A stretch of 40,609 nt of DNA from a virus. Taxonomy: Duplodnaviria; Heunggongvirae; Uroviricota; Caudoviricetes. The notes under the pieces were generated by a model. That model was not told where the DNA came from. It worked only from the letters and a program-made list of their open reading frames with translations, and ran no database searches. This document shows, piece by piece, positions 1 to 38,907 of the stretch (within the stretch, counting starts at the first letter, position 1; every line of letters starts with the position of its first letter). The translations under genes were made by a program, and so were the position numbers. The stretch lies in the IMG/VR virus record IMGVR_UViG_2778261163_000009. One strand, given 5' to 3'.

Positions 1-39
1 ATGGTGCTCATAAATCTGGTATACTTACCTTTACACATT

Positions 40-402
40 GGGGCTGATTCTGGATTCGACGGGATTTGCGAAACCCAAGGTGCATGCCGAGGGGCGGTTG
101 GCCTCGTAAAAAGCCGCAAAAAATAGTCGCAAACGACGAAAACTACGCTTTAGCAGCTTAATAACCTGCTTAGAGCCCTCTCTCCCTAGCCTCCGCTCTT
201 AGGACGGGGATCAAGAGAGGTCAAACCCAAAAGAGATCGCGTGGAAGCCCTGCCTGGGGTTGAAGCGTTAAAACTTAATCAGGCTAGTTTGTTAGTGGCG
301 TGTCCGTCCGCAGCTGGCAAGCGAATGTAAAGACTGACTAAGCATGTAGTACCGAGGATGTAGGAATTTCGGACGCGGGTTCAACTCCCGCCAGCTCCAC
401 CA
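40..402 (+). ncRNA. ssrA: tmRNA (SsrA), complete, ending in CCA
   Basis: Begins GGGGCTGATTCTGGATTCGACGGG, contains the tag-coding region and ends with the tRNA-like acceptor arm ...GGTTCAACTCCCGCCAGCTCCACCA; matches the enterobacterial ssrA sequence from memory. Confidence 0.9.
358..402 (+). repeat. Left copy of 45-bp direct repeat (ssrA 3' end); prophage attachment core (attL)
   Basis: ATGTAGGAATTTCGGACGCGGGTTCAACTCCCGCCAGCTCCACCA occurs identically at 35175..35219. Confidence 0.8.
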
Positions 403-411
403 AATAAATCA

Positions 412-445
412 AGGGGTTACGTGAAAGCGTAGCCCCTTTTTCTTT
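412..445 (+). terminator. Rho-independent terminator downstream of ssrA
   Basis: Stem AGGGGTTACG / CGTAGCCCCT followed by a TTTTTCTTT run. Confidence 0.6.
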
Positions 446-575
446 GGTAGTGGCGGCAAAATGGCGATAGCCATGGACTAGGGTTGGGTACACGCACATT
501 GCCCTCTATCCTTATGAGTGATCGCACACACGCCTCTACTTTCAAGCTATATTCTAATCTCAATATGAGGCTACT

Positions 576-1289
576 ATGGACTTCAACCTGAACAAAAAAA
601 TGCCAGTTAATAGATATCTTGTGATAATAGTTTTTGTCCTTTTCATCTTAGCCTGTATGCAGTTTATTTATCTTTGCCTTCGTTCATTAAGCATTGCCCC
701 AAACTATACGGGGACTGTAAGTGACATTATAATAGCTACAACAAATATTATTTTAGCTACCTACGCCGTTCGTGCATTCAAAAACTTATTTAAAGATAAA
801 CTATCCGATAATGCCATTAGTAAAATAGATACAGCATTGATGTCTCTCGATGATTGCATAGATAGTTTTTCAAGCTTATTTTTAAATATGACACTTATTA
901 AGATTTATAAAAACACTAATAACCCCAAGGACCCTCAGTTAGTTAAACAGCTCGATGAAGCAGCAAAAAACATTGAAAAAGCAACAAGTTCAGCCTACAA
1001 GGCAAGATCTATAATTGACTCATTAACTCGTTGGAATATAAGCTTAAACACAGAAAAAGGAATAAGACTAAACCAACTTACCACTGATGTTTTTGAGTTA
1101 GGCATGCAGGCAACAAATATGTATATCGCACTAATAAATGAAATAAACCCTAACTCCCCATACAACTCTTTAACTCATAGACCATTTGATGAGTTATTTA
1201 ACGAATTTAATGAAGAAAGGACCAGAGTTGAAGACGAAAGCAATGAATTAAAAGAGTTCTCTATTCATGAAATATTTAAAATCAAATAA
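576..1289 (+). CDS. Hypothetical membrane-anchored protein (prophage cargo, AT-rich)
   Basis: 237-aa ORF with a GAGG ribosome-binding site; hydrophobic N-terminal helix (LVIIVFVLFILACMQFIYLCL) then a charged, probably helical domain; lies between attL and ogr; no family recognised. Confidence 0.6.
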   Translation: MDFNLNKKMPVNRYLVIIVFVLFILACMQFIYLCLRSLSIAPNYTGTVSDIIIATTNIILATYAVRAFKNLFKDKLSDNAISKIDTALMSLDDCIDSFSSLFLNMTLIKIYKNTNNPKDPQLVKQLDEAAKNIEKATSSAYKARSIIDSLTRWNISLNTEKGIRLNQLTTDVFELGMQATNMYIALINEINPNSPYNSLTHRPFDELFNEFNEERTRVEDESNELKEFSIHEIFKIK

Positions 1290-1366: not shown

Positions 1367-1388
1367 AAAACCCGCCAGCGGCGGGTTA
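1367..1388. terminator. Bidirectional hairpin terminator between the cargo ORF and ogr
   Basis: AAAACCCGCCAGCGGCGGGTT; perfect GC-rich stem with an A-run on one side and a T-run on the opposite strand. Confidence 0.6.
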
Positions 1389-1391
1389 GTA

Positions 1392-1607
1392 TCAGTAAAC
1401 TAATTGCTCCTGCATCCCTTTGGGATGCGGTGGGGCGGCACTGATTTTCTCGGGACGACAAACAGAACGAACAAAGGTTTCATGCGTTACAAACGTATGC
1501 CCACACTCAATATTAGTGCACTGATTGTAACGCTCTTTGGTTTGAGAGGAGACTTGAAAACTACTGCGAGTATGTGCGGCCTGACCACACAACGGACAAT
1601 TCATCAT
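1392..1607 (-). CDS. ogr: Late gene transcriptional activator Ogr (zinc finger)
   Basis: 71 aa, CPLCG...C..IEC four-cysteine motif, size and position as in P2 ogr, next to gene D. Confidence 0.85.
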   Translation of the reverse strand: MMNCPLCGQAAHTRSSFQVSSQTKERYNQCTNIECGHTFVTHETFVRSVCRPEKISAAPPHPKGMQEQLVY

Positions 1608-1675: not shown

Positions 1676-2776
1676 TTATTCCATCTCAAGATCACCAATC
1701 CTCACTTCAAGCTCAAGACTGGTCGTAAAACCGTTATCCGGGCTGACGGTATGTGTCAGAGTCGTAATGGTCCATTCCGCATCATCTATCGGCTGTTTAA
1801 AGCCACTGACCTTCACAGGCATTTCTGTGTAGAGGTCTGCCCGCCCTTCCGCCAGTTGTAGCGAGAATGACGCAACACCGCGTTGCAGGCGTTCCCACTG
1901 CATTTTCGCCGCTCGTTCAGCGTTGCCCCGGTTGGCATAGGTACGATTAAGTACCAGCACGTTTTCATCCGTACCCACCAGGTAATCGCCCTGCTTCGCT
2001 TCCGGCTCTTTCTTCTGCTTCTTAGTCCTGCGCTTACGCTTCACCGTGGTGCTTTCTTTCTTCGCGGGTTCGCGGGTATGCAACCAGCTGGCAATTACGC
2101 CCGTGTAGGCTCCGCGATCTGCCAGGGTAAAGCGGTGACTGTCGCCGTCCTTGCGTGTGATAGTGATCACCGGCAGTGGTTTACCGCTGGCGCTTTTACC
2201 CTGTCCCTGTCGGATAAATAACAGATTGCCATTTTTCACCGACGCAATAGCACCGTACTGGCGCGCCAACCGCATCAGAAAACTGCCGTCACTCTCATTG
2301 GTCTGGTCTATATGTTCCACGGGTTTATCTGACAGGTCTTTACCCAATGCCATCTTCAGTTTGTGCCGCGCAGCTATTTCCTTCACCACTTCCCCAACGG
2401 TGGTCTTGTGCCACGACTTTTCACGGCGGGTATTCAGCGTTTCACGAAAATCAGCACTTCGCGCCCGGATAGTCAGGCGGTCCGGTGCGCCAGTGTGTTC
2501 AATCTCGTCCACCGTGAATGCCCCTTTCGGGAAAAGCGGCTGCCCCTTCCAGCCCAGCGCCAGCGTAATGACCGCACCACGGCGCGGCAGCGCTATTTTT
2601 CCATCGGCGTCGTCCAGCTCCAGATCAAGCTGGTCCGCTTCAAAGCCCCGGTTATCCGTCAGCGTCAGCCTCATCAGGCGGTTATCCAGCACAGTGGTGA
2701 TATCCCTGCCCTCAATACTGATGCTGAATGCCGGAGTTTTGTTGCCTTTGTTAAGCAGTTCAGAGCTGAAATTCAC
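1676..2776 (-). CDS. D: Tail protein D (late control D protein)
   Basis: 366 aa; sequence and position (after U, before ogr) match P2 gpD. Confidence 0.85.
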   Translation of the reverse strand: MNFSSELLNKGNKTPAFSISIEGRDITTVLDNRLMRLTLTDNRGFEADQLDLELDDADGKIALPRRGAVITLALGWKGQPLFPKGAFTVDEIEHTGAPDRLTIRARSADFRETLNTRREKSWHKTTVGEVVKEIAARHKLKMALGKDLSDKPVEHIDQTNESDGSFLMRLARQYGAIASVKNGNLLFIRQGQGKSASGKPLPVITITRKDGDSHRFTLADRGAYTGVIASWLHTREPAKKESTTVKRKRRTKKQKKEPEAKQGDYLVGTDENVLVLNRTYANRGNAERAAKMQWERLQRGVASFSLQLAEGRADLYTEMPVKVSGFKQPIDDAEWTITTLTHTVSPDNGFTTSLELEVRIGDLEME

Positions 2777-6815: not shown

Positions 6816-7331
6816 TCAGAGGCCGAGGGCGTTGCGGTGCGCTTCCATCAGGTCCACACCGTCCACAATTTCCACCATGTTGATAAGGTCCACTTCATAG
6901 AGCACCTCACCATTGATGGTCAGCTTCGCGTAGCTGTTGGTACTGGTCACTTTGGTGGTGTTGCTTTCGCCCGTCTTCCACTCGCCGGAATCCACTTCTT
7001 TGTGACGTCCACGCACCACAAGCTCCACGGCCTGCACTTCCCCGGTATCGTCACGCTGGATAGAGCCAGTAAAGCGCAGCTGGATGCCATCCACAGTGGC
7101 TTTGCCTATCTGCTTAAACAGCAGCAGTTCAGTACCACCAATGGAAAATTCTGTGTCCAGAGCACTGTCATCAAGCCCCAGATCCACATCCACCGCCCCC
7201 GGCATTCCGCCGCCGCGATACTTCTCATATTTGCGGGTGAATTTCGGCAGCGTCAGCGACTCAACGATCCCCTGCCAGTTGTTCCCGTCGTTAAACAGGT
7301 TCAGGTGTTTTAATTTGCGTGGTAAAGCCAT
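6816..7331 (-). CDS. FII: Tail tube protein FII
   Basis: 171 aa, P2 gpFII-like, downstream of the sheath gene. Confidence 0.85.
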   Translation of the reverse strand: MALPRKLKHLNLFNDGNNWQGIVESLTLPKFTRKYEKYRGGGMPGAVDVDLGLDDSALDTEFSIGGTELLLFKQIGKATVDGIQLRFTGSIQRDDTGEVQAVELVVRGRHKEVDSGEWKTGESNTTKVTSTNSYAKLTINGEVLYEVDLINMVEIVDGVDLMEAHRNALGL

Positions 7332-7340
7332 GTTGTCCCC

Positions 7341-8513
7341 TTACGCGCTGACCTGGCTGGAGAAATTCACCAGGTACTGATCGGTGATGCGCTGACGCAG
7401 CATCAGGTTTTCAAGTGGCGGCACTGGCGTGTAGTCGTAGTCGATGGTGAGCTTCCCGGCTTTCAGAGTATCTTTGTCGTTCACCGACTCATCCAGCCAG
7501 CAATCACCACCAATGAGATAGCCCTGACTGACCAGGCTGCGCATTTTGGCGCGGATACCTTCGATAATGTCGCGGGCCAACGACGGGTTCAGCGGTTTGT
7601 CCACCGCCCACATATGCGCTTCTGCCATTGTGTCCATAAGTACTTGCGCCGTGCGGGTGTAGTTTTCGAAGGCAAAGAGCGGGTCATCACTCAGGCAGCG
7701 GGAACCCCAGAAGCGGAAACCGTCTTTGCGGATAAGGGTGGTGACGTCGTTCTGGTTCAGCAGTCCCGCATCTGTTGCCGTGTCCTGCAGATCCCAGAAC
7801 ACATCAGCAGAAATTCCGGTGACACCGTTAACGCCCACGTTGGACAGGCTTTTGTGCCATCCGGTCTGCTCATCAATTTTGGCGCGCAGACCAAGCGCAC
7901 GGGCGGTGGCATAAGCCGTTGCTTCGGCATTCAGCACCGTGTCCCAGCCAGTAAAGTCGGGCCAGATCAGCATTCCTTCACGCTGACTGAAGTTTTCACG
8001 GTAAGTGATCGCCTCCTGCACTGTCTTGCAGCCATACGCTGACAGGTAAGCAAACCCACGCAGGCTTTGCGCCACGCTCAGCAACTCAGTAGCAACGGCT
8101 TTGTTATCGTGGCCTGGCACGCCGAGAATGCGCGGTTTAACGCCGAGCTGTGACTGTGCAGATAACAGAGCTTTCATGCCTGTTTTTTTACCTTCAGCAG
8201 TCACTGCGCCGATGATATTGGTCGTGGTTTCTTCTTCCGTTTCACCCTGCGGCACACGCACAACAACGGTCACGGGTTTTGCCTGGTCAGCGATGGCATC
8301 CAGCGAACGGGCCAGCGTGCCGGACTCACCCGCTTTACCGCTGGCAGTCAGCACATCAGTGATCAGCACGGGTTTATTAAGAGGAAACATTTTTGCATCG
8401 GCATCATCGCCCGTGCAGACCATACCCACGATGGCGGTGCTCACCGTGGTAATGGATCGGGTGCCTTCGTTGATTTCAACAACGCGCACCCCGTGGTGGT
8501 AATCCTGAGCCAT
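7341..8513 (-). CDS. FI: Contractile tail sheath protein FI
   Basis: 390 aa, P2 gpFI-like. Confidence 0.9.
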
Positions 8514-8655: not shown

Positions 8656-9225
8656 TCAGGGGGATTCATTGCTCTTATTTGCCGGAAATTTTCTATAAAT
8701 GGTAGAAACGCCTACATCAAAAATCAGTGCAATACGCTGTCTTGATTCTCCGGCCTCGAGTAAACGCCCAATCTGTGCCCACTGTTTGGTGGTCAACTTA
8801 GGACGGCGTCCACCTACTCTGCCTTTGGCACGAGCTGCAGCCAGCCCTGCCCTAGTACGTTCAACTATCAGTTCGCGTTCCATTTCAGCCAGGGCCCCCA
8901 TGACATGAAAAAAGAAACGGCCCATTGGGGTGCTGGTATCAATACTGTCAGTCAGGCTTCGGAAATTCACGCCACGCTGACGCAACTCTTCTATCAGCGT
9001 AACAAGATGCCGCATACTGCGCCCCAACCTGTCTAGCTTCCAGACAACCAGCGTGTCTCCTGCCGATAGTGTCCTGAGCAGTTTTTTCAGCCCCGGTCTG
9101 TCGGACTTAGTGCCACTGATTTTATCCTCAAAAATCCGCTCACATCCCGCGCAGTTCAGTGCATTACGTTGCAAATCGGTGTTCTGGTCATTTGTTGACA
9201 CGCGTACATAGCCAATAAGTATGAT
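8656..9225 (-). CDS. Gin/Pin/Hin-family serine DNA invertase; canonical start codon position is ATA
   Basis: Translation reads (I)LIGYVRVSTNDQNTDLQRNAL... and runs collinear with Pin/Gin through the C-terminal helix-turn-helix; the ORF track begins at GTG 9201, but homology continues 8 codons upstream to an ATA preceded by an AGGGGG ribosome-binding site. Confidence 0.8.
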   Translation of the reverse strand: MILIGYVRVSTNDQNTDLQRNALNCAGCERIFEDKISGTKSDRPGLKKLLRTLSAGDTLVVWKLDRLGRSMRHLVTLIEELRQRGVNFRSLTDSIDTSTPMGRFFFHVMGALAEMERELIVERTRAGLAAARAKGRVGGRRPKLTTKQWAQIGRLLEAGESRQRIALIFDVGVSTIYRKFPANKSNESP

Positions 9226-9249: not shown

Positions 9250-9771
9250 ATGATGCCAGTTAGCTGTTACCTCTGCATTTTCTTAAACGTTGGTTTGGGA
9301 GAAGGCTCTGCATTACCTGTTGGTGTGCCTGTTCCATGGCCTTCAGCCACACCGCCAACAGGCTGGCTGAAATGCAACGGTGCGGCTTTTTCTGCTGAAG
9401 AATACCCGGAACTGGCAAAGGCTTATCCGACAAATAAATTGCCTGATTTACGTGGTGAGTTTATTCGTGGCTGGGATGACGGGCGCGGTATTGATGCAGG
9501 ACGTGTTTTATTGAGCATTCAGACAGGGATGCTGGAAAAGCACCGTCATCCTGTTGTCGCCAACGATGGGTATGACTCAAAAGAGGTATGGGAACTGGCG
9601 GCGATCTTCAGAAGAGCATATACACAGGGCAAGGGACTGGATGGTACCAGTGCAGGCGGAACTTTGATTCCATCACCAACGCTACATACACGAGGGAGTG
9701 TCGGTAATACTGGCGGGAGTGAAACCCGTCCACGAAATATTGCATTTAACTTTATCGTGAGGGCTGCATAA
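9250..9771 (+). CDS. Alternative tail-fibre C-terminal segment (silent copy, tail-collar-like)
   Basis: Encodes GLGEGS at the crossover site, then PVGVPVPWPSATPPTGWLKCNGAAF typical of tail-fibre receptor-binding tips; opposite strand to H. Confidence 0.7.
   Translation: MMPVSCYLCIFLNVGLGEGSALPVGVPVPWPSATPPTGWLKCNGAAFSAEEYPELAKAYPTNKLPDLRGEFIRGWDDGRGIDAGRVLLSIQTGMLEKHRHPVVANDGYDSKEVWELAAIFRRAYTQGKGLDGTSAGGTLIPSPTLHTRGSVGNTGGSETRPRNIAFNFIVRAA
9278..9303. repeat. Invertase crossover site (hix/gix-like 26 bp), left end of invertible segment
   Basis: TTTTCTTAAACG TT GGTTTGGGAGAA; the right half-site is the reverse complement of the left half-site of 11144..11169. Confidence 0.7.
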
Positions 9772-10379
9772 TGGATAACGCCGTATTAAATAGCGAGCTT
9801 ATTGCCACGAAGGCGGGGAATATTACAGTCTATAACTATGATGGTAAAACTCGGGAATATATTTCTACTTCAAATGAATATCTTGCCATTGGTGTCGGTA
9901 TCCCTGCATATTCCTGTCTGGATGAACCTGGTATACATAAGGCGGGTTATGCTATCTGCCGTTCGATGGATTTAAACTCATGGGAATATGTGCCAGACCA
10001 TCGCGGTGAAATCGTCTATAACACCGAAACGGGAGACGCCAAAGAAATCACAGCTCCGGGTGATTATCCTGAAAATACAACCACTATCGCCCCGTTAACG
10101 CCATTCGATAAATGGGATGGTAAGAAATGGGTGACCGATACTGAGGCACATCATAGCGCCGCAGTAGACGCGGCAGAAGCACAGCGTCAGTCACTGATTG
10201 ATACTGCAATGGCTTCCATCAGTCTGATTCAACTGAAATTGCAGGCCGGGCGGAAGCTGACGCAGGCAGAAACCACCCGACTTAACGCTGTGCTGGATTA
10301 CATTGACGCGGTGACGGCAACAGATACCAGCACCGCGCCGGATGTTATCTGGCCTGAACTGCCGGAGACTGCACAATAA
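9771..10379 (+). CDS. Tail fibre assembly chaperone for the alternative fibre tip
   Basis: 202 aa, start overlaps the preceding stop; a hairpin CCCTGCTG-TGTGT-CAGCAGGG follows at 10401..10424. Confidence 0.7.
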   Translation: MDNAVLNSELIATKAGNITVYNYDGKTREYISTSNEYLAIGVGIPAYSCLDEPGIHKAGYAICRSMDLNSWEYVPDHRGEIVYNTETGDAKEITAPGDYPENTTTIAPLTPFDKWDGKKWVTDTEAHHSAAVDAAEAQRQSLIDTAMASISLIQLKLQAGRKLTQAETTRLNAVLDYIDAVTATDTSTAPDVIWPELPETAQ

Positions 10380-23456: not shown

Positions 23457-24155
23457 TTATTTGTTTCTTCTTTGTTCACGCCTTGTCTTGGCTTCGATAA
23501 GGCGTTGAGGTTCAGTGTAAAGCCGTTCTAAAAAAAGATAGGTAAAATCTTCAAGATCCTCAGCAGCAGCTTTATCCAAAATACCTTCATGCGCTCCATC
23601 ATTTCCGTCATCTTTAACGCATTCAGCTAGTTCCCTTAAAGCTTCAGGCAGTAGATGATTATCAAATAACCACTCCATTCTTAACCCTAGGCTTCTCCTT
23701 ATTTTTTGCGCAGGCCCTTGCTCCCCATCAGGAAGAAGTCCTTTTGTGGCATAATCAAGGCAAAGCCTAAACATGGTTGCTGCTGCATTATAACAACCTA
23801 TAGCCAAACATTTCGCCCCTTCCTCATATGCACTATTGATATGCTCAGGTAAGAACTCTGGTGGCTCCTCTACTGCTAAGTCTGCCGGTGATATAGGTCT
23901 AACAACCTCTGCAACTTCCTTTAAGCCGAATATTCCACTTTCCCAATTATAGTCATCTAAAGTTTTATTTTTCGTTAAAGGTCTGCAAAGAAAAATTGTC
24001 GTTTTATGACACTCTCGGCAAACACAATAGACCTCGTACTCGTATGTTTTACCCCCGCCCAATGCATTGTAAACCCTAGTGCAATTCAGCCCATTAACAT
24101 CAAACGCTATTTTTTGTGATCCACATCGTGGACAGTCATCCACTAACATAACCAT
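23457..24155 (-). CDS. Hypothetical zinc-ribbon protein (cargo between Q and cos)
   Basis: 232 aa, GGGAGGAG ribosome-binding site; N-terminal CPRCG...CVCRECH cysteine cluster; C-terminal acidic/His region (DDGNDGAHEG); AT-rich; no P2 counterpart at this position. Confidence 0.6.
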   Translation of the reverse strand: MVMLVDDCPRCGSQKIAFDVNGLNCTRVYNALGGGKTYEYEVYCVCRECHKTTIFLCRPLTKNKTLDDYNWESGIFGLKEVAEVVRPISPADLAVEEPPEFLPEHINSAYEEGAKCLAIGCYNAAATMFRLCLDYATKGLLPDGEQGPAQKIRRSLGLRMEWLFDNHLLPEALRELAECVKDDGNDGAHEGILDKAAAEDLEDFTYLFLERLYTEPQRLIEAKTRREQRRNK

Positions 24156-24265
24156 GTCAATTACTCCTCCCTATGAAAAAAATGAGTTGAAAAATTGAAT
24201 ATTCACGACTTAAAAAGCTAGCCTATTTAACACCATAATTTCATTAATTCAACCATGAGCGCGCG

Positions 24266-24284
24266 CTCGTATCCCCGCCACGCC
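24266..24284. other. cos site (19-nt cohesive end) of the prophage
   Basis: Reverse complement GGCGTGGCGGGGATACGAG resembles the P2/186 cohesive end (GGCG(A/T)GGCGGGGAAAGCA-) and lies where cos is expected next to Q. Confidence 0.6.
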
Positions 24285-24324
24285 TGCCCGCTTTATGTAG
24301 TGGTTTTCATGCGCCTGCATGACA

Positions 24325-24353
24325 TAAGCAAAAGCCCGCCACTCCTGGCGGGC
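24325..24353 (-). terminator. Rho-independent terminator after the 203-aa cargo gene
   Basis: GCCCGCCA-CTCC-TGGCGGGC stem followed by TTTTGCTT on the minus strand. Confidence 0.6.
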
Positions 24354-24444
24354 CTCAGCTAAAACGATCCTCAAACGATCATGCGGATTCATGCGGCATA
24401 GACATGCACAATCTCCAAAGCGGGCATCGAGACTTTTTGGAAAC

Positions 24445-25056
24445 CTACGTAACCACAGTTAATGTGTGCATCCTGTTTCGAATTGCATCACACGTCTCAT
24501 CAAAAAGCTTGGTGATGGTTGTACGGTTCAACTCCGCCTCTTTCCAATAATTTTGCCCGTCAAATTCTGGATCGCTATGCTGAAACGATATTGACTCTGA
24601 AAGGCATTCCTTCCGGAAACGGTCCAAGATTATATAAACCTCTGGTGAGATGAACGGTTTGTTAGATTCAACACTTGTAACAAAAGTGTTAAATGCTTCA
24701 AAAAAAACTTTCAATCTTCTAAATTTTCTCTCTTCAAATGGTTCGTTGGGGTCAACATGATCCAGCGCAGGCCTCAGCTTAAGCACGCTTTCTCTGGTTT
24801 CAAACATCGAATTCCAAATGAGACTATATGCTGATAACTCCTTATCAAAATACGCTTTCGTTACATAAACAGAATTGTCTAACTTAGCCTTTATTCTTTC
24901 ATTAGTTGCACTCAGTTGTGATTGAAATTCAGCAATATCTTTGTTTAGCCGCGACTTATATCTTTCTAAATAAACTTTCCCGATCCAAACAAATATGCCA
25001 GATGCAACAAAAGACACCCCACCCAACGAAGCCAGAACTTTAAAGACTAAATCCAT
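24445..25056 (-). CDS. Hypothetical membrane-anchored protein (cargo between cos and the SOS module)
   Basis: 203 aa; AGGTGGGGG ribosome-binding site; TATAAT-like -10 box about 30 bp upstream; N-terminal transmembrane helix (LVFKVLASLGGVSFVASGIFVWI); AT-rich. Confidence 0.6.
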   Translation of the reverse strand: MDLVFKVLASLGGVSFVASGIFVWIGKVYLERYKSRLNKDIAEFQSQLSATNERIKAKLDNSVYVTKAYFDKELSAYSLIWNSMFETRESVLKLRPALDHVDPNEPFEERKFRRLKVFFEAFNTFVTSVESNKPFISPEVYIILDRFRKECLSESISFQHSDPEFDGQNYWKEAELNRTTITKLFDETCDAIRNRMHTLTVVT

Positions 25057-26024: not shown

Positions 26025-28439
26025 TTAATACAGGTTTCGCCACTTATCATCTTCCTGCAAACGCTGGTTCCGATAGAAGATACGCAGGCCTGCTCCTGAC
26101 GGAATACTGCCGCCGCGAAGGAGTAAATCGACCTCTTTCTCGCTGCCATTAAATCCTCTGGACTTCAGTTCATAGACGAGCTGCTGTCGCTGATGGTCTG
26201 TAATTCGCTGTTTGTAGTCTTTACGCCGTTTCGGTTTCACCAGGCGTAACCTTGCAGCCAGTTCCCGGCGCTCTTTTTTGCTCATACTGTGCAGGTAACC
26301 GTGCAACTCCTTGTCATCCATGCGGGTAATGTCCGTCCTGGTATCCCCATCAGCTGATTTGTCTTTCCCTTGTTGGTTCAAATTTTCAGCAAGGGGACAG
26401 TTATTGCCACGAGTCCAAGGGGCGCAAGCGCCCTGGTCGGCTGCCGCCTCCTGAACATCAACGGCCTTACGAACCATTTTCCACTTCACGGCATGAGTGC
26501 AGATCTTGCCCTCTGCAATAGGTGACCAGATGCCATAAATACGAATGCCGTGATCGCCATAGGCGGTCGGCTCTTCGTTGATTTCATAAGCGGTTCTGAT
26601 GAGGTGATATTTGCGGGGAACCAGTACGCCGCCCTGCTTCATGATGTAGGTGGCAAAACAACCAGCATCAGCAGCAGCCAGGATGGCATCAAGGCGTGGG
26701 TTATCCAGTACCGGCGCACCTGCTTTTTTGTCCCCCTGTTGCCTTGCCGCCTGACCAGCCAGCAATCGCAGTTCACGGTAAGCCTGACGCCCCGGAATGC
26801 CAAAGAAGCGGAATTGCTGAACACGATGCAGAGACGCCCAGGCATTAACGTATTCAGCATTATCACGCAGGGATTTCCCCGTTTCCTTGCTGATCTCGCC
26901 AGCCAGACCACGCCCGTCAATGTTCTTACTGATGTATTTCGCGATGTAGCTTGTTGGCGTTCCTTTGCGCGGGTTAATCAACTCAGACTTAAAGCGCGGC
27001 CCAGTGTTATTGCCCAGCTCCTCGCGGTCTTCACGGATGGCAAACTTACGCAGTAATGCAGTGATGGCACGGCGGTCTTTTTTGCGCATGAAACACAACA
27101 GGTGCCAGTGAACTGTGCCGTCATGATGCGGCTCAGCCACCCGCACGCCATACCAGCGCAACCCGGCTTTGTGCATCGCCTTACGAAATGCAGCAAACAT
27201 GCCGACCAGATAATCGCTGCTTTGTCTTACCGTCGCGTTTGTCCAGGTCGGGTTTGGTCTGCCGTTATTGAGCGTGGAATGGAAACGTGACGGACAGGTG
27301 ATGGTGTAGAAAACGGCGCAGTCACCGCGCATTTCCGCGATAAGCTCCAGACCTTTAACACAGGCCATCATCTCATTGCGGCGATGCGCCGGGTTGCTGC
27401 TGCTGGCGTTTACCACATCCTCCATGTCCAGCGTGTCGCCGTCTTCGTTCACCAGTTCATGAGAACGGAAAAACTCCAGCGACTTACGGCGCTGCTCACG
27501 TTTATGCATCACGGCTTCATAGCTGACATAGGGAGATGCTTTTTTGCTGACCAGGCAGACAGCACGCAACTGCTCTTCCCGCCATTCGCAACGCATCTTC
27601 CATAATTTCCGATACCACCAGTCGGCGCACAACATACGCGCCAGCGAACCCGGAATGAGTTCATAGGGCACGGGTTTACGGCGGTTTCTTTTCCGACGGA
27701 GTTGCTCAAACGCAGGAGGGATTACATCCAGACGCAGGGTTTCCGCTGCCACCTTTTCCCATGTCTTGCGGATTTCTTCTGGCTTAACGTCATCGGTGGC
27801 ATACAAATCACCACAAGCTGCATCAAGGCACATGCTCATATGCGCGGCAACAAGGGTAGACAGGCGCTTCACCTGATCCTGACTCATTTCAGGCAGGATC
27901 AGCAGGCCGTCCAGCCCTTCATGGCTTGCCATAAAGCGAAAAGAAGTGGATAGCTGACTCTCGCGTACATGCTCCAGTCGTTCCAGACATGGCTTAATCG
28001 TCTCACGCAAATAGCGGGAATAAGCCTTTGGCCTGCCCAGGCTGCTGAAGTATTCAATACGTTGCATCAGCGGCTTGCTGATATGGGAAGGCTGGGCGTT
28101 GACGTCCGCCAGAATGACCATATCCGGATTAAAACGCTGCTGCTCATGCGCCAGCTTTGCCCGACTAATGAGCTTATCCTGCTCGATTTCGCGCTGGACA
28201 GGATCACGGGATTCATTAAAGAAATAACGCTCCCAGACCTGATCACTCAGCGCCTCACGGCGCAGCTGTTCCTGCTCGTTATCGGCAGCGTACAGAGTGA
28301 TCAGGTTTGAAAGCGCAGAAACCGGCGCAACTTCCGCCGGGTCCAGATAAGGGTTAATGGCCTTTTTCGGGCTGCTCCATGAGAATGCTGCTGCGACCTC
28401 GTTAAAGCCGCTGCAGTTGTTCATATCAGCATGGCTCAT
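26025..28439 (-). CDS. A: Replication initiation protein A (rolling-circle nickase)
   Basis: 804 aa, P2/186 gpA-like. Confidence 0.85.
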
Positions 28440-31533: not shown

Positions 31534-32166
31534 ATGATACAGGTAAAGGCTGGAGAGAATACAGGGGGAAGAGAGGCTATCCATAGACTAATGGCAGCCT
31601 ATGATTTCAAGTCCAGACAGCAACTTTGCGATCACTTAGGCGCATCAAAAAGCACCATGGCAAACAGATACTTAAGAGATAGTTTTCCTGCAGAGTGGGT
31701 GATTCAGTGCGCCTTGGAAACAGGAGTTTCTTTACTGTGGCTAACCACCGGACAGGGAGAGCCAGGTCCAAACATTAAACCTAAAAAAAATATCAATTCC
31801 GTGAACTCCAGCAAGGTTGTACCTCTTTCTGAACTAGTATCTCCTGAAATTGACAAGGCGACTCTCAACGGTGGTTTATTGGTCGATGCTGGAAAAGCAA
31901 TCATTGATAGCAGCATACTCCCCTCAGACTCAAGCAACCTACTGCTGGTGACTACTTCTGGTGATTCTTATTTAATAGATCGCAACCAAACACCACCAGT
32001 AAATGGTATGTGGTTAGTCGATATCGACGGGATAAAAAGCATTGTTAAATTGACTCGGCTCCCGGGAAACAAATTAGTAGTGCATCAGGATGATTCATCG
32101 TTTGAGTGCGGTCTGGATGACATTGAGGTAGTAGGCCGCGCACTGAAAATCATTAAGAGCCTTTGA
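31534..32166 (+). CDS. cI: Immunity repressor CI (186-type)
   Basis: 210 aa; N-terminal helix-turn-helix and C-terminal region resemble 186 CI (..CALETG..L.WL.TG.GE... LPG.KL.V). Confidence 0.8.
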   Translation: MIQVKAGENTGGREAIHRLMAAYDFKSRQQLCDHLGASKSTMANRYLRDSFPAEWVIQCALETGVSLLWLTTGQGEPGPNIKPKKNINSVNSSKVVPLSELVSPEIDKATLNGGLLVDAGKAIIDSSILPSDSSNLLLVTTSGDSYLIDRNQTPPVNGMWLVDIDGIKSIVKLTRLPGNKLVVHQDDSSFECGLDDIEVVGRALKIIKSL

Positions 32167-32167
32167 T

Positions 32168-33181
32168 ATGACCATCAGAAAACAGCCGAACGGAAAATGG
32201 TTGTGTGAGTGCTATCCCAATGGACGCAATGGCAAGCGCGTGCGTAAGCAATTTGCTACGAAAGGCGAAGCCATTGCGTTTGAAAGCTTCACAATGGAAG
32301 AAGTGAATAAAAAACCGTGGTTGGGTGAAAAGGATGATCGGCGACGCCTATCAGAATTAATTGAGCTTTGGTATTCCCTGTATGGTCAAACACTCGCAGA
32401 CCCCAAGCGCCTCATGGCGAAACTTAGAATTATCTGTAATGGTCTAGGCGATCCCATCGCCTCAGAACTGACAGCTGGTGACTTTACAAAATACCGCGAA
32501 GCACGGTTAAAAGGTGAAATACGAAATGAAGATGGCACACTTATGTCGCCCGTAAAGCCCCGTACGGTAAACCTTGAACAGCGCAATCTATCATCTGTGT
32601 TCGGTACATTAAAAAAACTAGGACACTGGTCAGCACCAAACCCGCTGGCAGGACTTCCGACCTTCAAAATTGCCGAAGGTGAGCTGGCTTTTCTTTCCAC
32701 GGACGAAATCAAGCGCCTGTTGGCGGCATGTGCTGAATCTCAAAACCCTAGCTTACTAATGATTGCAAAAATATGCCTAGCTACTGGCGCACGGTGGAGT
32801 GAAGCCGAAAATCTGCAGGGCCACCAAATATCGAAATACCGAATTACTTATACAAAAACAAAAGGCAAGAAAAACAGAACAGTACCCATATCACAGGAGC
32901 TGTATGACGAACTCCCAAAGAACAGAGGGAAGTTATTCTCACCATGTAGAAAAGCCTTTGAACGAGCAGTAAAACGGGCAGGTATAGATCTACCGGATGG
33001 CCAATGCACCCACGTGCTGCGACATACGTTTGCTAGCCACTTTATGATGAATGGCGGGAACATACTTGTGCTAAGGGATATTTTGGGACATTCGGATATC
33101 AAGATGACCATGGTTTACTCACATTTCTCACCAGATCATCTTGAAGATGCCGTTACTAAGAACCCATTAAACTTGATATAA
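32168..33181 (+). CDS. int: Tyrosine integrase (P2/186 type)
   Basis: 337 aa; C-terminal catalytic region HVLRHTFAS...LGHSDIKMTMVYSHF with the R-H-R-Y tetrad; directly follows cI. Confidence 0.9.
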   Translation: MTIRKQPNGKWLCECYPNGRNGKRVRKQFATKGEAIAFESFTMEEVNKKPWLGEKDDRRRLSELIELWYSLYGQTLADPKRLMAKLRIICNGLGDPIASELTAGDFTKYREARLKGEIRNEDGTLMSPVKPRTVNLEQRNLSSVFGTLKKLGHWSAPNPLAGLPTFKIAEGELAFLSTDEIKRLLAACAESQNPSLLMIAKICLATGARWSEAENLQGHQISKYRITYTKTKGKKNRTVPISQELYDELPKNRGKLFSPCRKAFERAVKRAGIDLPDGQCTHVLRHTFASHFMMNGGNILVLRDILGHSDIKMTMVYSHFSPDHLEDAVTKNPLNLI

Positions 33182-33194
33182 AACAGCCAAAATT

Positions 33195-34952
33195 CTATTT
33201 CATCAAGTAATCCAATTCATCCTTCATAGGTATAACTTGCTCATAAAGTCTATGGTAGGATTTTCCAATTGCCCCCCTAAATTGAATAAGTTTAGGGGAA
33301 AAGCTACCGATATTAATAATATGTTCTTGCGCTATACCAGGATATGGATCGATAAAAATAATCTCTGTCATACCTAACTGATAAGCTTTTTTAGCACAAA
33401 GTTCACAAGGGCTAGCTGTAGTATATAGTTTCCCTCCATTAATACCGACCCCACCATATTTGGCCAATTGCAAAAAAGCATTCTCCTCTGCGTGCAATGC
33501 ACGGGTATGCACTTGATTCCCTTTCTTTTCATCATCAAGGCTGTTGTGAATATCTTTAAAACAATATGGCAAATTAAGTCCTTTAAAAACAGTAGAACTT
33601 GAATCACTCGCCCTTATTTTTATTAAATTTTCTTTAACTTTACTCCTAAATTTTGTATTACTTCGTTCGTACAGGCTATATGTTCCCTCATCAAAATCAT
33701 GCAATAACCCATCAAATGACCTCATAGAACAAGGAACTTGACCTTTTGCTACATCGTTCCAACCAACTGACTTGATAGAGTTATCATTATCTGTCACAAC
33801 CGCCCCTACTTGCCTAGATATACATCCAGAATTTAGTTTTACAGTATATGCAACTTGCATAACCCTTTCCATGGCGGTAGGAGATATTAATCCAGGGTGT
33901 TGCATTAATGATACATACCACGCAATTTGTGCTTTGAGAAAGTTATTATTATCAAATTCTTTTTTAGGGTTAAAAAAATGTATATCTGAAATTTCAATGC
34001 ATTTTTTTACATTAGGATTAGTAAGATGATTATACTCGCCATCTCCTTTACCAGATTCTTCATCATTAATTTTTTTTATCTGTTCCTCTGAGAACTTATG
34101 TAATTTCTTTAAATATCTGGTTCGATGTTCATCTGGTGCATTTATAGAAACCAGATGGAATGCAGCATATCTATCTTTGAAGAATTTAGCTTCATACGGG
34201 TTACGTATCGCATCAATGACTATATACGCTTTATTATTCTTTACTTTTCTAATTATTTTAATAACACGATTAATTGTTTCAGGTAAATGAAAAACAGCCT
34301 TTGGAATAAAGTCTTGATTTTCATAATCTACATCAACCTTCCCTATTCTTCTAATTGACTTTCCTGCTGACTGATATAGCTCAATATATAAACCTGGCTC
34401 TAGTTCATTTAATTCCCTTTTAAAATCCCGTGTAAATTTTCGAGTAAGAGTTAATATCCTAATAAAGGTATCTTTCCCCCTGCCTTTAAAGTCAATCTCA
34501 TCATCATGATTAAGAAGATTTTTTATCACCTTAAGATATTTTATCTTCAACAAACTTTTAGCGAACACACCATTAACAACCAGTTTCTTAGCTGCCTTAA
34601 AGGAAATCGAATTTTCTTTTTTATCGGGGATTTTACTTGCAGAAAACTGAATGAATTTAGCTAAGGCCGATGGAGATAAAAGGAGCAAATATATTGAAAT
34701 GAGATCACTGACCTTTATCGAATAGAAGTTCTTCCAATGAGTCTCTGCAAAATTTTTTACTATTTCATAACGCCGCAAATCCAATCCTTTATAATACTCA
34801 GCCAAGACGTTACTATCTGGAAAAGATATTTCTTTTTGTTCTAAAATATTTGCTGCAGTAGTACATCCTGAGCCAGTTCTCCCAGTTAAACCAATAAGAA
34901 TAAATTGACTATTTTCTAAAAAAAGCTCACTAATAAATTTGTGTTCTCTCAT
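33195..34952 (-). CDS. P-loop NTPase/kinase-like plus zinc-dependent cytidine/deoxycytidylate deaminase fusion (AvcD / dCTP-deaminase-like defence protein)
   Basis: 585 aa; N-terminal Walker-A-like ILIGLTGRTGSGCTT; C-terminal deaminase signature HTRALHAEENA ... ASPCELCAKK (H-A-E and P-C-x-x-C zinc ligands); AT-rich; sits between int and attR. Confidence 0.6.
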   Translation of the reverse strand: MREHKFISELFLENSQFILIGLTGRTGSGCTTAANILEQKEISFPDSNVLAEYYKGLDLRRYEIVKNFAETHWKNFYSIKVSDLISIYLLLLSPSALAKFIQFSASKIPDKKENSISFKAAKKLVVNGVFAKSLLKIKYLKVIKNLLNHDDEIDFKGRGKDTFIRILTLTRKFTRDFKRELNELEPGLYIELYQSAGKSIRRIGKVDVDYENQDFIPKAVFHLPETINRVIKIIRKVKNNKAYIVIDAIRNPYEAKFFKDRYAAFHLVSINAPDEHRTRYLKKLHKFSEEQIKKINDEESGKGDGEYNHLTNPNVKKCIEISDIHFFNPKKEFDNNNFLKAQIAWYVSLMQHPGLISPTAMERVMQVAYTVKLNSGCISRQVGAVVTDNDNSIKSVGWNDVAKGQVPCSMRSFDGLLHDFDEGTYSLYERSNTKFRSKVKENLIKIRASDSSSTVFKGLNLPYCFKDIHNSLDDEKKGNQVHTRALHAEENAFLQLAKYGGVGINGGKLYTTASPCELCAKKAYQLGMTEIIFIDPYPGIAQEHIINIGSFSPKLIQFRGAIGKSYHRLYEQVIPMKDELDYLMK

Positions 34953-35174: not shown

Positions 35175-35219
35175 ATGTAGGAATTTCGGACGCGGGTTCA
35201 ACTCCCGCCAGCTCCACCA
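35175..35219 (+). repeat. Right copy of 45-bp direct repeat (ssrA 3' fragment); prophage attR and boundary to the next island
   Basis: Identical to 358..402. Confidence 0.8.
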
Positions 35220-35287: not shown

Positions 35288-35384
35288 ACGTCTATTGTCG
35301 TCCAGTGAGAATTGCTGAGAACTACGAGTTATGGCACCCTGAATGGGACCCACTAAGAAGGGTCCAAAAACCGAGGGTCCCAAA

Positions 35385-36614
35385 ATGGCAAAAATCGCTA
35401 AGAAGCTCACTGACACTGAAATCAAAAGCACCAAGCCAGCCGATAAAGAAATCAACTTGTTTGACGGTGATGGTCTGATTCTACGAATCGCTCCTTTGGC
35501 GAAAGGAGGCAAGAAAAATTGGTATTTCAGGTATGCAGTACCAGTGAGCAAGAAAAGAACCAAAATGAGCCTTGGGACATATCCTCACCTTACCCTTGCA
35601 AGAGCCAGAGCCTTACGTGATGAATATCTCTCCTTTCTGGCAAATGGTGTTGATCCCCAAATCCATAACAACGATAAGGCGAAGGCATTAAAGAGTGCTA
35701 CTGAGCACACTCTCCAAGCCGTAGCGCGGAAATGGTTAGATGAGAAGGTAAAGACATCAGGTATCTCACAAGACCATGCAGCAGACATCTGGCGCAGCTT
35801 AGAGAGAAATGTCTTTCCCGGTCTGGGTAATGTCCCTATCAATGAGATCCGACCTAAGCTCTTAAAACAACACCTTGATCCTATTGAGCAACGAGGCGTA
35901 TTGGAAACTCTACGCCGTATCATTTCACGTCTGAATGAAATCTTCCGGTGGGCAGCTACTGAAGAACTTATTGAGTTCAACCCGGCTGACAACCTTGGTC
36001 AAAGATTCAGTAAACCAAAAAAGCAAAATATGCCTGCCCTTCCCCCAAGCGAATTGCCAAGGTTTATGGAATCTTTGACGAATGCGTCAATCCGGTTGGA
36101 AACACGTATGCTAATTGAATGGCAATTGTTGACATGGGTTCGTCCGGGTGAAGCCGTTCGCGCAAGGTGGTCTGATATTGATACAACCAACAGCATTTGG
36201 AACATTCCTGCTGATTTCATGAAAATGAAAAAGCTTCACAAAGTTCCTTTGAGTAAAGAAGCTTTGCGCATCCTTGAATTAATGAAATCAATAAGTGGGC
36301 ATAGAGAATGGGTTTTCCCCAGCATAAAAGCGCCTCTTAATCATATGCATGAACAAACAGCCAACGCAGCTATCATCCGAATGGGGTTCGGAGGCGAGCT
36401 TGTAGCTCACGGTATGCGTTCTATTGCACGAACAGCGGCAGAGGAGTCTGGTAAATTCAGAGCTGAAGTTCTTGAGGCAGCGCTTGCCCACTCGAAAAAA
36501 GATGAAATTATCGCAGCATACAATCGTGCAGAATATCTGATAGAGCGACAGAGTTTGATGCAATGGTGGAGTGATTACGTTCAAGCTCAAAGATCAAATG
36601 CTCTGGTAGCCTAA
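35385..36614 (+). CDS. P4-family tyrosine integrase (IntA/CP4-57-like)
   Basis: From MAKIAKKLTDTEIKSTKP...DGDGL.LRI... which resembles E. coli IntA; C-terminal catalytic region with HGMRS and AYNRAEY; the ORF track starts 14 codons earlier. Confidence 0.8.
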   Translation: MAKIAKKLTDTEIKSTKPADKEINLFDGDGLILRIAPLAKGGKKNWYFRYAVPVSKKRTKMSLGTYPHLTLARARALRDEYLSFLANGVDPQIHNNDKAKALKSATEHTLQAVARKWLDEKVKTSGISQDHAADIWRSLERNVFPGLGNVPINEIRPKLLKQHLDPIEQRGVLETLRRIISRLNEIFRWAATEELIEFNPADNLGQRFSKPKKQNMPALPPSELPRFMESLTNASIRLETRMLIEWQLLTWVRPGEAVRARWSDIDTTNSIWNIPADFMKMKKLHKVPLSKEALRILELMKSISGHREWVFPSIKAPLNHMHEQTANAAIIRMGFGGELVAHGMRSIARTAAEESGKFRAEVLEAALAHSKKDEIIAAYNRAEYLIERQSLMQWWSDYVQAQRSNALVA

Positions 36615-36652
36615 GTATCAGAATAGCTAATATAATCCTGAAGGTAAAGAAA

Positions 36653-37069
36653 ATGGAAACCCTATTCAAAGTTTTTGAAAAATTTAGTTCCAGACCACTT
36701 TTTTTTATTTTTTTCGGACTCTCACTTTGTGAATTTTTTCAGAAACAATCTGTTCTGATGAATCCATCAGCAGATAACATCGCGAAATTATTCGCAGCCA
36801 TGATATTAGTTGTTTTTTTTACTTGGGGATTTGAATGGCTAATCTTCAAGTTCAATGTAAACCTTGAACCTCATGATCAAGGCGATATTGGACCAACAAT
36901 TGGAACGGCTACTTTAGCTGTATACTTAGTTTATGCCTTTCACTTTCTCAGTGAAAATCCTGAAGCATTAAATTTAAAGTTATTAACTAACTCTGGCTTT
37001 ATATACAGCACAACTCTATTATTATTCTCATTAGAATGCATGAAGCTTAGAAGACTTAAACAAAAATAA
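36653..37069 (+). CDS. Hypothetical small multi-pass membrane protein
   Basis: 138 aa with three to four hydrophobic helices; 39 bp after int on the same strand; AT-rich. Confidence 0.5.
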   Translation: METLFKVFEKFSSRPLFFIFFGLSLCEFFQKQSVLMNPSADNIAKLFAAMILVVFFTWGFEWLIFKFNVNLEPHDQGDIGPTIGTATLAVYLVYAFHFLSENPEALNLKLLTNSGFIYSTTLLLFSLECMKLRRLKQK

Positions 37070-37140
37070 ACAACATCATTGTGATGATAAATATAAAATA
37101 GGCATGGCGAAAAAAAATCACCACGCCTAAAATATAATAA

Positions 37141-38907
37141 TTATGGTAGCATCATTGATACATAATCCACACCAATCCTTGAGCTATACTGAGACGCTAT
37201 AGCCTGATATCTTTCTGCATAACCAGTTCTCAGTTGAGATTTAAGTTTGAGTCGGACAGGAACATTTTGCACGTTGCCATCCATATTACTTAAAAACACG
37301 GCAGAAATAATATTTTTTTCTTCGCCATCAACTGTTGTTCCATGATTCAACACCACCATATAATCAACAACAGGAAGCGTTTTATCCCCTTCGAAAATAG
37401 AGAGATATTTTCTTTGATTTTTATGCATTACATATATATATTTCGAATGTTCAGCAAATGGCAATGCTTTACTCTGACTGGCGTTAAAAAGCTCCAGAAC
37501 TTTAATGAGCCTGTGCGGACTTAATCTTACATGGTGAGGGTCGTTACCCTGAGTAGGAACCAAATCACATGCCGCAGATACACATAAATACCATTTGTTC
37601 GACTCTGTATCAAAGAAAATAGTGCCAGTAGAAATATGACCATCTTCAAAATTCTTTGAAGACAAATTCATATTTAAAGCATGATACATTTCGTGATAAG
37701 TATCATTATTTGATGGCAGATCCATTTTTGAAGAGCAATATTGGAGCAATGCAGCAACTCCGCTGTTAGCGTATTCATTTGAATAGCTATCAAAAACACT
37801 TTTGATAAATTCATCCAGCGTATTATTATTTTTAAGTCTTTGATAAAGCTCTTCTGATAAATTACCAAATACAAAGTCAATATTTCTACATCTAATATCA
37901 GGCGAGTCTGATTTTAATATCTCATTTAACCACGCAGCTTGACCGTAATGATCGTTAGCCAAATGATTTACAAAAGATAAAGCCTCAGCTTCGATTGCAT
38001 TCTGAATTTCAGATTTTATTAACTGATAATAAGATGGTTTCCATTCAATGAGAGAATCATTGAGAGTTTGCCAAATCCTATCTCCATCGTTTTCATGATC
38101 ATCTTGAACCTTATGAAATAGGGAGACAAAGATATTACCACATTGAATCCATTTTACTCCGCTTTCATCACCCCGAATGACATTGCCAGATGTGTTGCTA
38201 GAAATAATTGCATTTCTAGACACAGCATATTCTGCAATCATTTTTGCAATGAAGTTTTTATCCTTTTGATCCTCCAACACAGCATCATCATGTATTAATC
38301 TTTTAATTCTTCTACAAGGCTTACTGTCTTTAATATAGGCTATTGTTTCATCTCTTGTGAGAGCTTTATTACCATTATCATTTAAGTTCGGTAATACAAC
38401 GTCTTCCCAATAACTTTGGACATCTTCATTATCGTAGTCAATGATCAAGCTGTTGATATCCAGAGCACCTTTGAGAGTCGATGATATCTGCATCCAAACC
38501 GTTTCTAAATTCTCTCTAGTATATATTACAATCATATTTAAATGATCGGAGTCTTTCAAATCTTGTAATAGTTTAAGTGTTTTATCAGGTGCATTATTAT
38601 CAAGATGATAATCTACAATAATAAGATCTGATTTTCTAATCCGATCCACATCGAAATTAACAGAACCATTGTCAACATCACAAATCATATTTTTAGATTG
38701 AAAAAAGCTCTCAAGAGTAGCGGCTCGTTTAGATGAGTCAATTTTGTTGTAGTCTAAATCAACTTCGTTATTCAACGCCCTGATTGATTCAGAATACGTC
38801 AGAAAATCGTCATCAATCATGACAACGGAACGAATTGCATTTTCGCAGAAAGTTTTCTGGACAAGAGAATTATAATTTGCCACTGTCATATTAGAACTCC
38901 ACTCCAT
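37141..38907 (-). CDS. Response-regulator receiver domain protein with a large uncharacterised C-terminal output domain
   Basis: 588 aa; N-terminal receiver-like motifs VVMIDDD (acidic pocket), DLIIVDYHL (phospho-acceptor Asp), MIVIYT (Thr); about 430 aa of unassigned C-terminal sequence; start overlaps the upstream kinase gene by 17 nt. Confidence 0.55.
   Translation of the reverse strand: MEWSSNMTVANYNSLVQKTFCENAIRSVVMIDDDFLTYSESIRALNNEVDLDYNKIDSSKRAATLESFFQSKNMICDVDNGSVNFDVDRIRKSDLIIVDYHLDNNAPDKTLKLLQDLKDSDHLNMIVIYTRENLETVWMQISSTLKGALDINSLIIDYDNEDVQSYWEDVVLPNLNDNGNKALTRDETIAYIKDSKPCRRIKRLIHDDAVLEDQKDKNFIAKMIAEYAVSRNAIISSNTSGNVIRGDESGVKWIQCGNIFVSLFHKVQDDHENDGDRIWQTLNDSLIEWKPSYYQLIKSEIQNAIEAEALSFVNHLANDHYGQAAWLNEILKSDSPDIRCRNIDFVFGNLSEELYQRLKNNNTLDEFIKSVFDSYSNEYANSGVAALLQYCSSKMDLPSNNDTYHEMYHALNMNLSSKNFEDGHISTGTIFFDTESNKWYLCVSAACDLVPTQGNDPHHVRLSPHRLIKVLELFNASQSKALPFAEHSKYIYVMHKNQRKYLSIFEGDKTLPVVDYMVVLNHGTTVDGEEKNIISAVFLSNMDGNVQNVPVRLKLKSQLRTGYAERYQAIASQYSSRIGVDYVSMMLP

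Follow-up and report, generated by a model that had tools for sequence, protein, structure and literature searches.

Known exclusion systems and the gene at ssrA

T4 Imm, P22 SieA and HK97 gp15 act by blocking genome entry, and a single membrane-protein gene next to the attachment site is the classical form of an exclusion gene, with lactococcal Sie2009, P22 sieA and HK97 gp15 as examples. Lambda RexB and the membrane-helix effectors of the CBASS, retron and Pycsar systems act through loss of membrane integrity upon infection. Here we report the analysis of a gene which resembles the former in form and position. It lies in a viral DNA stretch of 40,609 nucleotides (Caudoviricetes, IMG/VR record IMGVR_UViG_2778261163_000009), which as a whole is called the window below. 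The gene is an open reading frame (ORF) of 237 amino acids (aa) at 576..1289 on the plus strand, and the element that carries it is a P2-like prophage of about 34.8 kb with a 186-type immunity/repressor region, inserted at ssrA, the gene of transfer-messenger RNA (tmRNA). On the whole, our analysis leans slightly towards the reading that the 237-aa protein is, to judge from its sequence, a prophage-borne inner-membrane phage-exclusion factor of some kind.

The comparison with the described systems shows both likeness and difference. Like HK97 gp15, P22 SieA, T4 Imm and Sie2009, the protein is the small, non-enzymatic and membrane-anchored product of a single gene; the gene, like these moron-encoded exclusion genes, has a foreign composition, lies between temperate-phage backbone genes near att and int, and is oriented independently of the late genes. 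Unlike them, the 237-aa protein has a large cytoplasmic four-helix bundle by prediction and no similarity to the PHROG families. The exclusion phenotype is a property of the known proteins, to which the 237-aa protein is likened by form and position only. The gene also shares the carrier type, and a place as variable cargo between core genes, with the P2 accessory genes old, tin and fun/Z and with the systems of P2-like hotspots (Rousset 2022, PMC9122126; PMC13586616). It matches none of the 5027 PADLOC models and is none of these described systems. With RexB and the CBASS, retron and Pycsar membrane effectors it has in common conserved membrane helices with polar residues and a cytoplasmic part; however, those effectors need a partner sensor or a nucleotide signal, whereas the 237-aa gene stands alone (in locus L022 and in the window), has no partner conserved across its contexts and shows no homology to them. 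As for the 4HB_MCP ligand-binding bundles of Tar, Tsr, PcaY and TorS, the likeness in fold is generic, and the bundle of the 237-aa protein follows both membrane helices instead of lying between them in the periplasm.

An intact gene in an inserted cassette

The ORF begins with ATG and has a Shine-Dalgarno sequence, GAGG (567..570, plus strand), 5 nt ahead of it; the upstream alignment shows the context GAG-N-CT-A-N-T-ATG to be retained at most homologous loci. On the opposite strand beneath it there are only ORFs of 32 and 56 aa. The identical locus in Escherichia coli CEA212U is labelled 'hypothetical protein' in RefSeq (WP_096953857.1). The family has 17 distinct sequences in all, that is, 16 homologues of the window protein with lengths of 197-261 aa. 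Among these, a word-indexed search of 5.8 billion proteins gave 12 clusters with 52-97% identity, all of 236-261 aa except one fragment; an exhaustive hidden Markov model search of 1.84 billion representatives gave only 4 family clusters, and a second profile search two further members. Against the 60%-identical allele of E. coli TUM12355, the ratio of nonsynonymous to synonymous substitutions (dN/dS) is 0.21 at a dS of 1.26, with 0.26 in the membrane part and 0.18 in the bundle. In the alignment, 27 residues are invariant over 11 sequences with identity down to 28%. A frameshifted remnant of some known gene had been named beforehand as a possibility, and we find no frameshift, homologues of 197-261 aa and the low dN/dS just given. 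By these comparisons, the 237-aa ORF is to be regarded as a real, intact gene under purifying selection.

A preliminary description of this DNA, made from its letters, had placed an AT-rich cargo gene between attL and ogr, on the strand opposite to the late genes, in phages that normally have ogr next to the attachment site. All these points are confirmed. The ORF lies on the plus strand between ssrA and ogr, while ogr and gene D are on the minus strand. In a cargo-free relative, the prophage at ssrA of E. coli EC96 (L020), ogr is 117 nt from the tmRNA end. By blastn, this junction aligns to window positions 1-471 with 99% identity, and then to 1367-1771 with 88% identity. Since the homology to L020 ends at 471 and resumes at 1367, the segment 472..1366 (plus strand) consists of 895 extra bp, a cargo cassette (moron) in place of about 30 bp of the cargo-free phage. 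The guanine+cytosine (GC) content is 32.7% in the cassette and 32.1% in the ORF, against 54.9% in the late genes. From insertion and composition relative to the cargo-free phage, it is well supported that the 237-aa gene is an independent cargo unit (moron). The empty ssrA-ogr junction is, however, the less common state where a complete E. coli genome has its P2-like prophage at ssrA: only 2 show it, against 13 with the gene. Rfam gave nothing credible as a noncoding RNA in the cassette.

The bidirectional terminator that the same description put after the ORF is right in part. A hairpin does exist there, AACCCGCC-AGC-GGCGGGTT (1369..1387), which is GC-rich and the sole hairpin downstream of the ORF; however, its T-run is on the minus strand only, and it is the ogr terminator of the backbone, shared rather than borne by the cassette, with an equivalent in L020. 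Another terminator hairpin (411..438, plus strand; terminator scan), phage-borne, stands just past the CCA end of the tmRNA, within the segment 1-471 that is 99% identical to L020. Because both hairpins are present in the cargo-free phage, they belong to the backbone and not to the cassette.

The interval from ogr to int, with the phage attachment site (attP) inside, varies in gene content among related phages, as a hotspot does. On the ogr side of attP, it is empty (L020) or holds the 237-aa family in two allele groups, or the family lies on the int side instead (L021). The int side has a dCTP deaminase gene in the window and L002-5, a dCTP-deaminase-domain gene with thyX in L019, and a 397-aa gene with the family gene in L021. 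One preprint places a cargo hotspot of P2 'between a tail protein and CI' (bioRxiv 10.1101/2024.10.15.618418), and another recent report records the int-att interval as a cargo hotspot of P2-like phages (PMC13586616). In the available portions of this P2-like hotspot literature, the ogr-att position itself is not singled out and the protein is not named.

Predicted architecture and conservation

AlphaFold2 (AF2) was run on the family alignment and gave a model with a predicted local distance difference test (pLDDT) of 78 and a predicted template modelling score (pTM) of 0.61. The protein had been taken to have a single N-terminal transmembrane helix, which we correct here to two hydrophobic helices, a strong one at aa 14-36 and a marginal one at aa 49-69. 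Membrane helix 1 (615..683, plus strand) is strongly hydrophobic, with Kyte-Doolittle values up to 2.9, and corresponds to the AF2 helix 13-40. The segment 684..782 (plus strand) then encodes a short turn of aa 37-48, predicted to be periplasmic, and membrane helix 2, as placed by alignments, per-region entropy, helical wheel and charge counts; in the AF2 model the two helices span 13-40 and 48-71 and are linked by a 7-residue turn. The hydrophobicity of helix 2 is near the insertion threshold in most family members. Behind the hairpin, aa 78-225 (807..1250, plus strand) form a four-helix bundle, predicted to be cytoplasmic, with helices at 78-112, 120-153, 160-190 and 204-225 and a pLDDT of about 90. 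Across the family, the count of lysine and arginine is 2-4 on the N-terminal flank (members of full length), 0-1 within the turn and 3-5 after helix 2. Because of this positive-inside pattern, both termini and the bundle are placed at the cytoplasmic side, and the predicted topology is N-in/C-in, a two-helix membrane hairpin followed by a cytoplasmic four-helix bundle.

The per-region entropy shows that conservation is highest at residues 41-60 and next at 71-90, and lowest in the membrane-distal parts of the bundle. The most conserved residues are in the hairpin turn and on one face of helix 2 (P42, T45-G46-T47, S49-D50, A54, N57, A64 and A67). On a helical wheel, the invariant D50, A54, N57, A64 and A67 of helix 2, with a small residue at 61, fall on one face of 100-240 degrees. 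A face of this kind can pack tightly on another helix and may line a polar contact. Asparagine and aspartate within membrane helices drive self-association.

Distribution in temperate phages

We then present an overall view of where the family occurs. All copies whose place could be determined are at cargo sites of temperate phages or at what remains of such sites, and there are four cargo positions in two phage types, P2-like and lambdoid. Position (a), from the attL of ssrA to ogr, includes the window, L013, L019, L002-5, L011 and several metagenome contigs. The gene is found in 13 of 5426 complete E. coli genomes; besides the window, ten further complete genomes have it at position (a) with at least 98.9% DNA identity, and in two the DNA identity of the copy is about 76%. 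A search of 185,579 species representatives matches only 'Enterobacteriaceae bacterium G50' (L013), also at position (a). Here a tandem (CAGGCAGT)n repeat fills the gap between the ssrA terminator and the family gene (L013, about 7840-7960), and the same repeat is present in L011. Position (b), from int to attR, is seen in L021 with the order cI, int, 397-aa gene, family gene and ssrA core; in the excised phage, (a) and (b) are one interval, from ogr to int with attP inside. Position (c) is between the baseplate gene V and the tail gene S of P2-like phages, antisense (L018, L022 and L028), where in L018 an unrelated 246-aa gene precedes the family gene, which has the gap to itself in L022 and L028. 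Position (d) is in a lambdoid prophage at ssrA (L023-27), on the far side of the tail-fibre genes, next to a restriction-modification system of EcoRII type. Its protein, P0017, is the most distant member with 28% identity, and its gene stands between the tail-fibre genes and those of a cytosine methylase and an EcoRII-type endonuclease. P0017 thus shows that different phage types sharing the ssrA site carry related cargo, and it rules out a restriction of the family to P2-like phages. In about 1100 E. coli genomes, P2-like prophages inserted elsewhere than at ssrA resemble this one in the ogr-D region but lack the gene. The strains that carry the gene are of human, animal and bird origin.

In all contexts, the family gene is either antisense to the late operons or placed after the cI-int operon of lysogeny; the window copy has the orientation of ssrA and follows it directly, behind the terminator. 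These orientations and positions fit an expression in the lysogen, as far as gene order may suggest it. As for a constant partner, three candidates were rejected. The 585-aa dCTP deaminase accompanies the family gene in the window and L002-5, while L019 (TUM12355) has other cargo on the int side, namely the different dCTP-deaminase-domain gene and thyX. A 203-aa membrane protein (window 24445-25056) is present in the window and L006 and absent from the same hotspot in L019; it is unrelated in sequence to the family. The 246-aa gene upstream in L018 is unrelated and absent elsewhere. With hhalign as a test of paralogy, no relationship is found between the family and these neighbours.

Decayed prophages and exchange of alleles

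Three prophages that decayed independently still have the gene intact. In TUM12355 (L019), the portal, tape-measure and replication genes are truncated; the P0004 loci (L002-5) have lost most of the late genes and their int is split; in L006/L007, no phage core gene is left beside ssrA. In L006, the next gene encodes a 203-aa membrane protein (7018-7629), 75% identical to that of window 24445..25056. It is also observed that next to ssrA in L006 (5500-9400), and likewise in L007-L010, only genes of cargo type are left: that of the family, that of the 203-aa protein and a 374-aa ORF of unknown function. Neither ogr nor any other phage core gene is present, and the L006 locus looks like a prophage reduced to its cargo. 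Persistence after decay of the prophage would point to a benefit for the host, whose kind it does not specify.

The window and TUM12355 share 99-100% identity in ssrA and about 91-100% (mostly at least 94%) in the ogr-D region, against 53-78% in the cassette. Taken together, alleles differ by about 30% in DNA. Because old alleles sit in a young backbone, we suggest that alleles are exchanged by recombination through the conserved flanks. Divergent alleles within near-identical flanks make a pattern which is typical of exchanged conflict genes.

Searches for known families and folds

The window protein has no match better than E = 0.03 in Pfam, PADLOC, PHROGs and NCBIfam, in accordance with the preliminary description, which saw no recognisable domain. 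From these family libraries, SCAPER_N (0.043), MAG1210 (0.063) and phrog_4068 (0.033) were rejected as noise. For the distant members, PADLOC gives zero matches at E <= 0.1 (P0013-P0015) and at E <= 0.01 (P0016-P0017). A tblastn search of 50,697 deposited phage genomes shows that none encodes the 237-aa protein, and a literature search on the protein accession numbers found nothing. Of the profile and structure searches, which had been suggested as a check, the former lead to no family and the latter to matches of a generic four-helix bundle fold. The nearest natural ones are the sensor four-helix bundles of chemoreceptors and sensor kinases (Tar, Tsr, PcaY and TorS); de novo designed bundles score equally high. 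A 4HB_MCP-type sensor domain has no Pfam match in the protein, whose bundle comes after both helices and is cytoplasmic by charge, unlike such a domain. The BFVD structure search gave no match beyond two uncharacterised proteins. The best match of the family profile against PDB sequences, syntaxin at E = 0.13, was rejected as a coiled-coil artefact.

A possible mechanism and its alternatives

The preliminary description took the position of the gene to suggest a lysogenic-conversion or superinfection-exclusion gene expressed from the prophage. This is partly supported: the status as cargo is well supported, and expression in the lysogen and either role are conjectural. We suggest the following course of events. 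The cassette has been acquired horizontally, as a single gene, into the attP-flanking hotspot of an ssrA-integrated P2-like prophage. The lysogen would express the 237-aa protein, which would guard the cell and its prophage from other phages at the inner membrane. The conserved hairpin would be the effector, self-associating via the Asp/Asn face of helix 2, while the variable cytoplasmic bundle may be the sensor or gate for an infection cue; once the cue is sensed, assembly of the hairpin would perturb or permeabilise the membrane, and the infection would abort. This abortive membrane model, with the hairpin as effector and the bundle as sensor or gate, is put forward tentatively; for it we infer the topology, the oligomerisation, the expression in the lysogen, the anti-phage effect and the division into sensor and effector. 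A fuller version, which we regard as speculative, takes the family as a new anti-phage system that consists of one protein and is limited to temperate phages of enterobacteria; the variable bundle would sense an infection cue and then gate an Asp/Asn-lined oligomeric hairpin, collapsing the membrane potential or shutting DNA entry, and diverged alleles would be swapped between attP-flanking, baseplate-gap and tail-fibre-distal cargo sites of the phage types.

Several observations weigh against an exclusion factor, and some of them against the abortive model in particular. No homology to defence or exclusion families is found: the window protein has zero matches at E <= 10 in PADLOC-DB v2.0.0 (5027 models; systems to 2023), and the best of PHROGs v4 (E = 0.033) is a family of unknown function. 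Defence genes often lie beside the family gene, but are weak evidence because hotspots hold many kinds of cargo. The promoter scan gives no sigma-70 promoter reaching 9/12 consensus matches upstream of the ORF, where the best candidate by eye is a -10 TATATT with a poor -35, and the upstream regions of the family genes are too divergent to align a conserved promoter. The hairpin itself has an AF2 pLDDT of only 55-72, and R66 of the window copy makes the insertion of helix 2 less favourable. The invariant turn P-x-x-T-G-T-x-S-D could perhaps be purely structural, as a helix N-cap. Moreover, a pore-former made constitutively would be costly to the cell, so that the model depends on a gating which is itself conjectural.

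Alternatively, the protein may exclude phages without killing the cell, if the periplasmic turn and the outer part of helix 2, or a host inner-membrane partner, block the entry of phage DNA. Such an entry block, although possible rather than probable by itself, is nearly as likely as the abortive model. Down to 28% identity, no part of the protein varies less within the family than the turn that faces the periplasm together with the outer half of helix 2, and a small non-enzymatic membrane protein from a single gene beside att has the form expected here; carriers of both P2-like and lambdoid type fit a target in the host, and constant expression would do no harm. On the other hand, only about 7 residues are exposed to the periplasm in the AF2 model, and the cytoplasmic bundle, which makes up 70% of the protein, has no evident part in an entry block. 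PHROGs, assumed to include the families of known exclusion proteins from sequenced phages, contain nothing similar, and topology and expression are again what we infer. Somewhat less probable is a lysogenic conversion unrelated to phages, in which the protein would serve envelope physiology, such as stress or serum resistance, colonisation or signalling through the bundle, with a benefit in the niche, as conversion proteins such as lambda Bor and Lom help their host. The intact copies kept after prophage decay, the sensor bundles Tar, Tsr, PcaY and TorS as closest natural folds, and the human, animal and bird sources of the carriers would all agree with this; however, designed bundles score as high as those generic fold matches, the protein has no output or signalling domain, the family is found only in temperate-phage cargo sites and their remnants, and divergent alleles in near-identical backbones better fit a conflict gene than a housekeeping-like conversion gene.

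It is unlikely that the gene serves the phage and not the lysogen, in the lytic cycle or in establishment, for instance in lysis timing, in protection from interference by the host or by a satellite (P4), or in counter-defence. All members are indeed within temperate-phage genomes or remnants, the V-S position is near the lysis cassette, and holins, antiholins and spanins are membrane-anchored as well. Nevertheless, wherever the carrier is P2-like the gene runs antisense to the late and lysis operons, and most P2-like phages do without it (a similar ogr-D region occurs in about 1100 E. coli genomes, the gene in 13). It is encoded in none of the 50,697 phage genomes on deposit, and it stays intact where the phage can no longer grow. 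Finally, it is very improbable that the gene is a silenced AT-rich hitch-hiker without present function, persisting by linkage to the att region. DNA of about 32% GC is a typical target of H-NS silencing, the lack of a promoter at 9/12 consensus matches would agree with it, and one copy is truncated (P0016, 197 aa); yet the dN/dS of 0.21, at a saturating dS of 1.26, the 27 residues invariant across 11 sequences down to 28% identity, the conserved Shine-Dalgarno context and the intact copies in three independently decayed prophages are all against it.

Other features of the prophage and the window

The tmRNA gene ssrA (40..402, plus strand; ARAGORN, and Rfam RF00023 with 295.8 bits) is intact at the start of the window. 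A repeat search shows that its last 45 nt (358..402) recur exactly as a direct repeat at 35175..35219, and the two are thus the left and right attachment cores, attL and attR; since the last 45 nt of ssrA are the att core, the 3' end of ssrA is supplied or restored by the phage. Described P2-like phages using the ssrA site are Fels-2 and SopE-phi (PMC3448106). The first backbone gene is the ogr/Delta-type late activator (1392..1607, minus strand), followed by gene D (1676..2776, minus strand), both from the ORF list and the RefSeq annotation of the identical locus; after gene D come the tail, baseplate, lysis, head and terminase genes of the prophage. The backbone further includes the replication gene (26025..28439, minus strand), the cII-type and CI genes of the 186-type immunity region (CI at 31534..32166, plus strand), and the integrase (32168..33181, plus strand). 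Between the integrase and attR lies the dCTP-deaminase defence gene (33195..34952, minus strand; 585 aa, 33% GC; PADLOC dCTPase 2.2e-146, Pfam dCMP_cyt_deam_1). In the excised phage, this gene and the 237-aa gene flank attP, and are therefore divergent neighbours there. A motif, GTGGCGGCAAAATGGCG, occurs on either side of the att core in several ssrA-integrating phages (window 440-470, L020 1560-1600 and L021 6810-6835), twice in the cargo-free junction; its copies may be arm-type binding sites of the integrase.

There are further variable segments in the window. The hotspot at 23457-25056 (minus strand), which lies between replication gene A and portal gene Q, has two genes, one for a DUF4145 protein of 232 aa that weakly matches PD-T7-4 (9e-7), and the other for the 203-aa protein (24445..25056), with an N-terminal membrane helix and no family. 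A Hin/resolvase-type invertase gene (8656-9201, minus strand) adjoins a tail-collar ORF (9250-9771, plus strand) and a tail-fibre-assembly ORF (9771-10379, plus strand), which run opposite to the late genes (9250-10379); the segment 8656-10379 is probably an invertible host-range segment. Beyond attR, at 35343-40609, there is a second integrase of 423 aa (Arm-DNA-bind_3 and Phage_integrase), and then a gene pair of Response_reg_2 (PF19192) and HEF_HK/HATPase (PF19191). This part is a second island in tandem at ssrA, carrying an apparent conflict-system module.

Significance

Cargo hotspots of prophages have yielded many anti-phage genes, and the greater part of what they hold has yet to be named. 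Here the hotspot is already known, while the gene family is unnamed. The family is a well-defined candidate, as a lone gene with few relatives (4 clusters in 1.84 billion), a sharp membrane motif, four sites in two phage types, and copies intact amid decay. Either outcome would be incremental rather than surprising. If the protein has no phage phenotype, it would be a lysogenic-conversion membrane protein with possible effects on the envelope. If it is an exclusion or abortive factor, it would represent a new membrane-acting family, and the ogr side of attP in ssrA-integrating P2-like phages would be a working defence locus.

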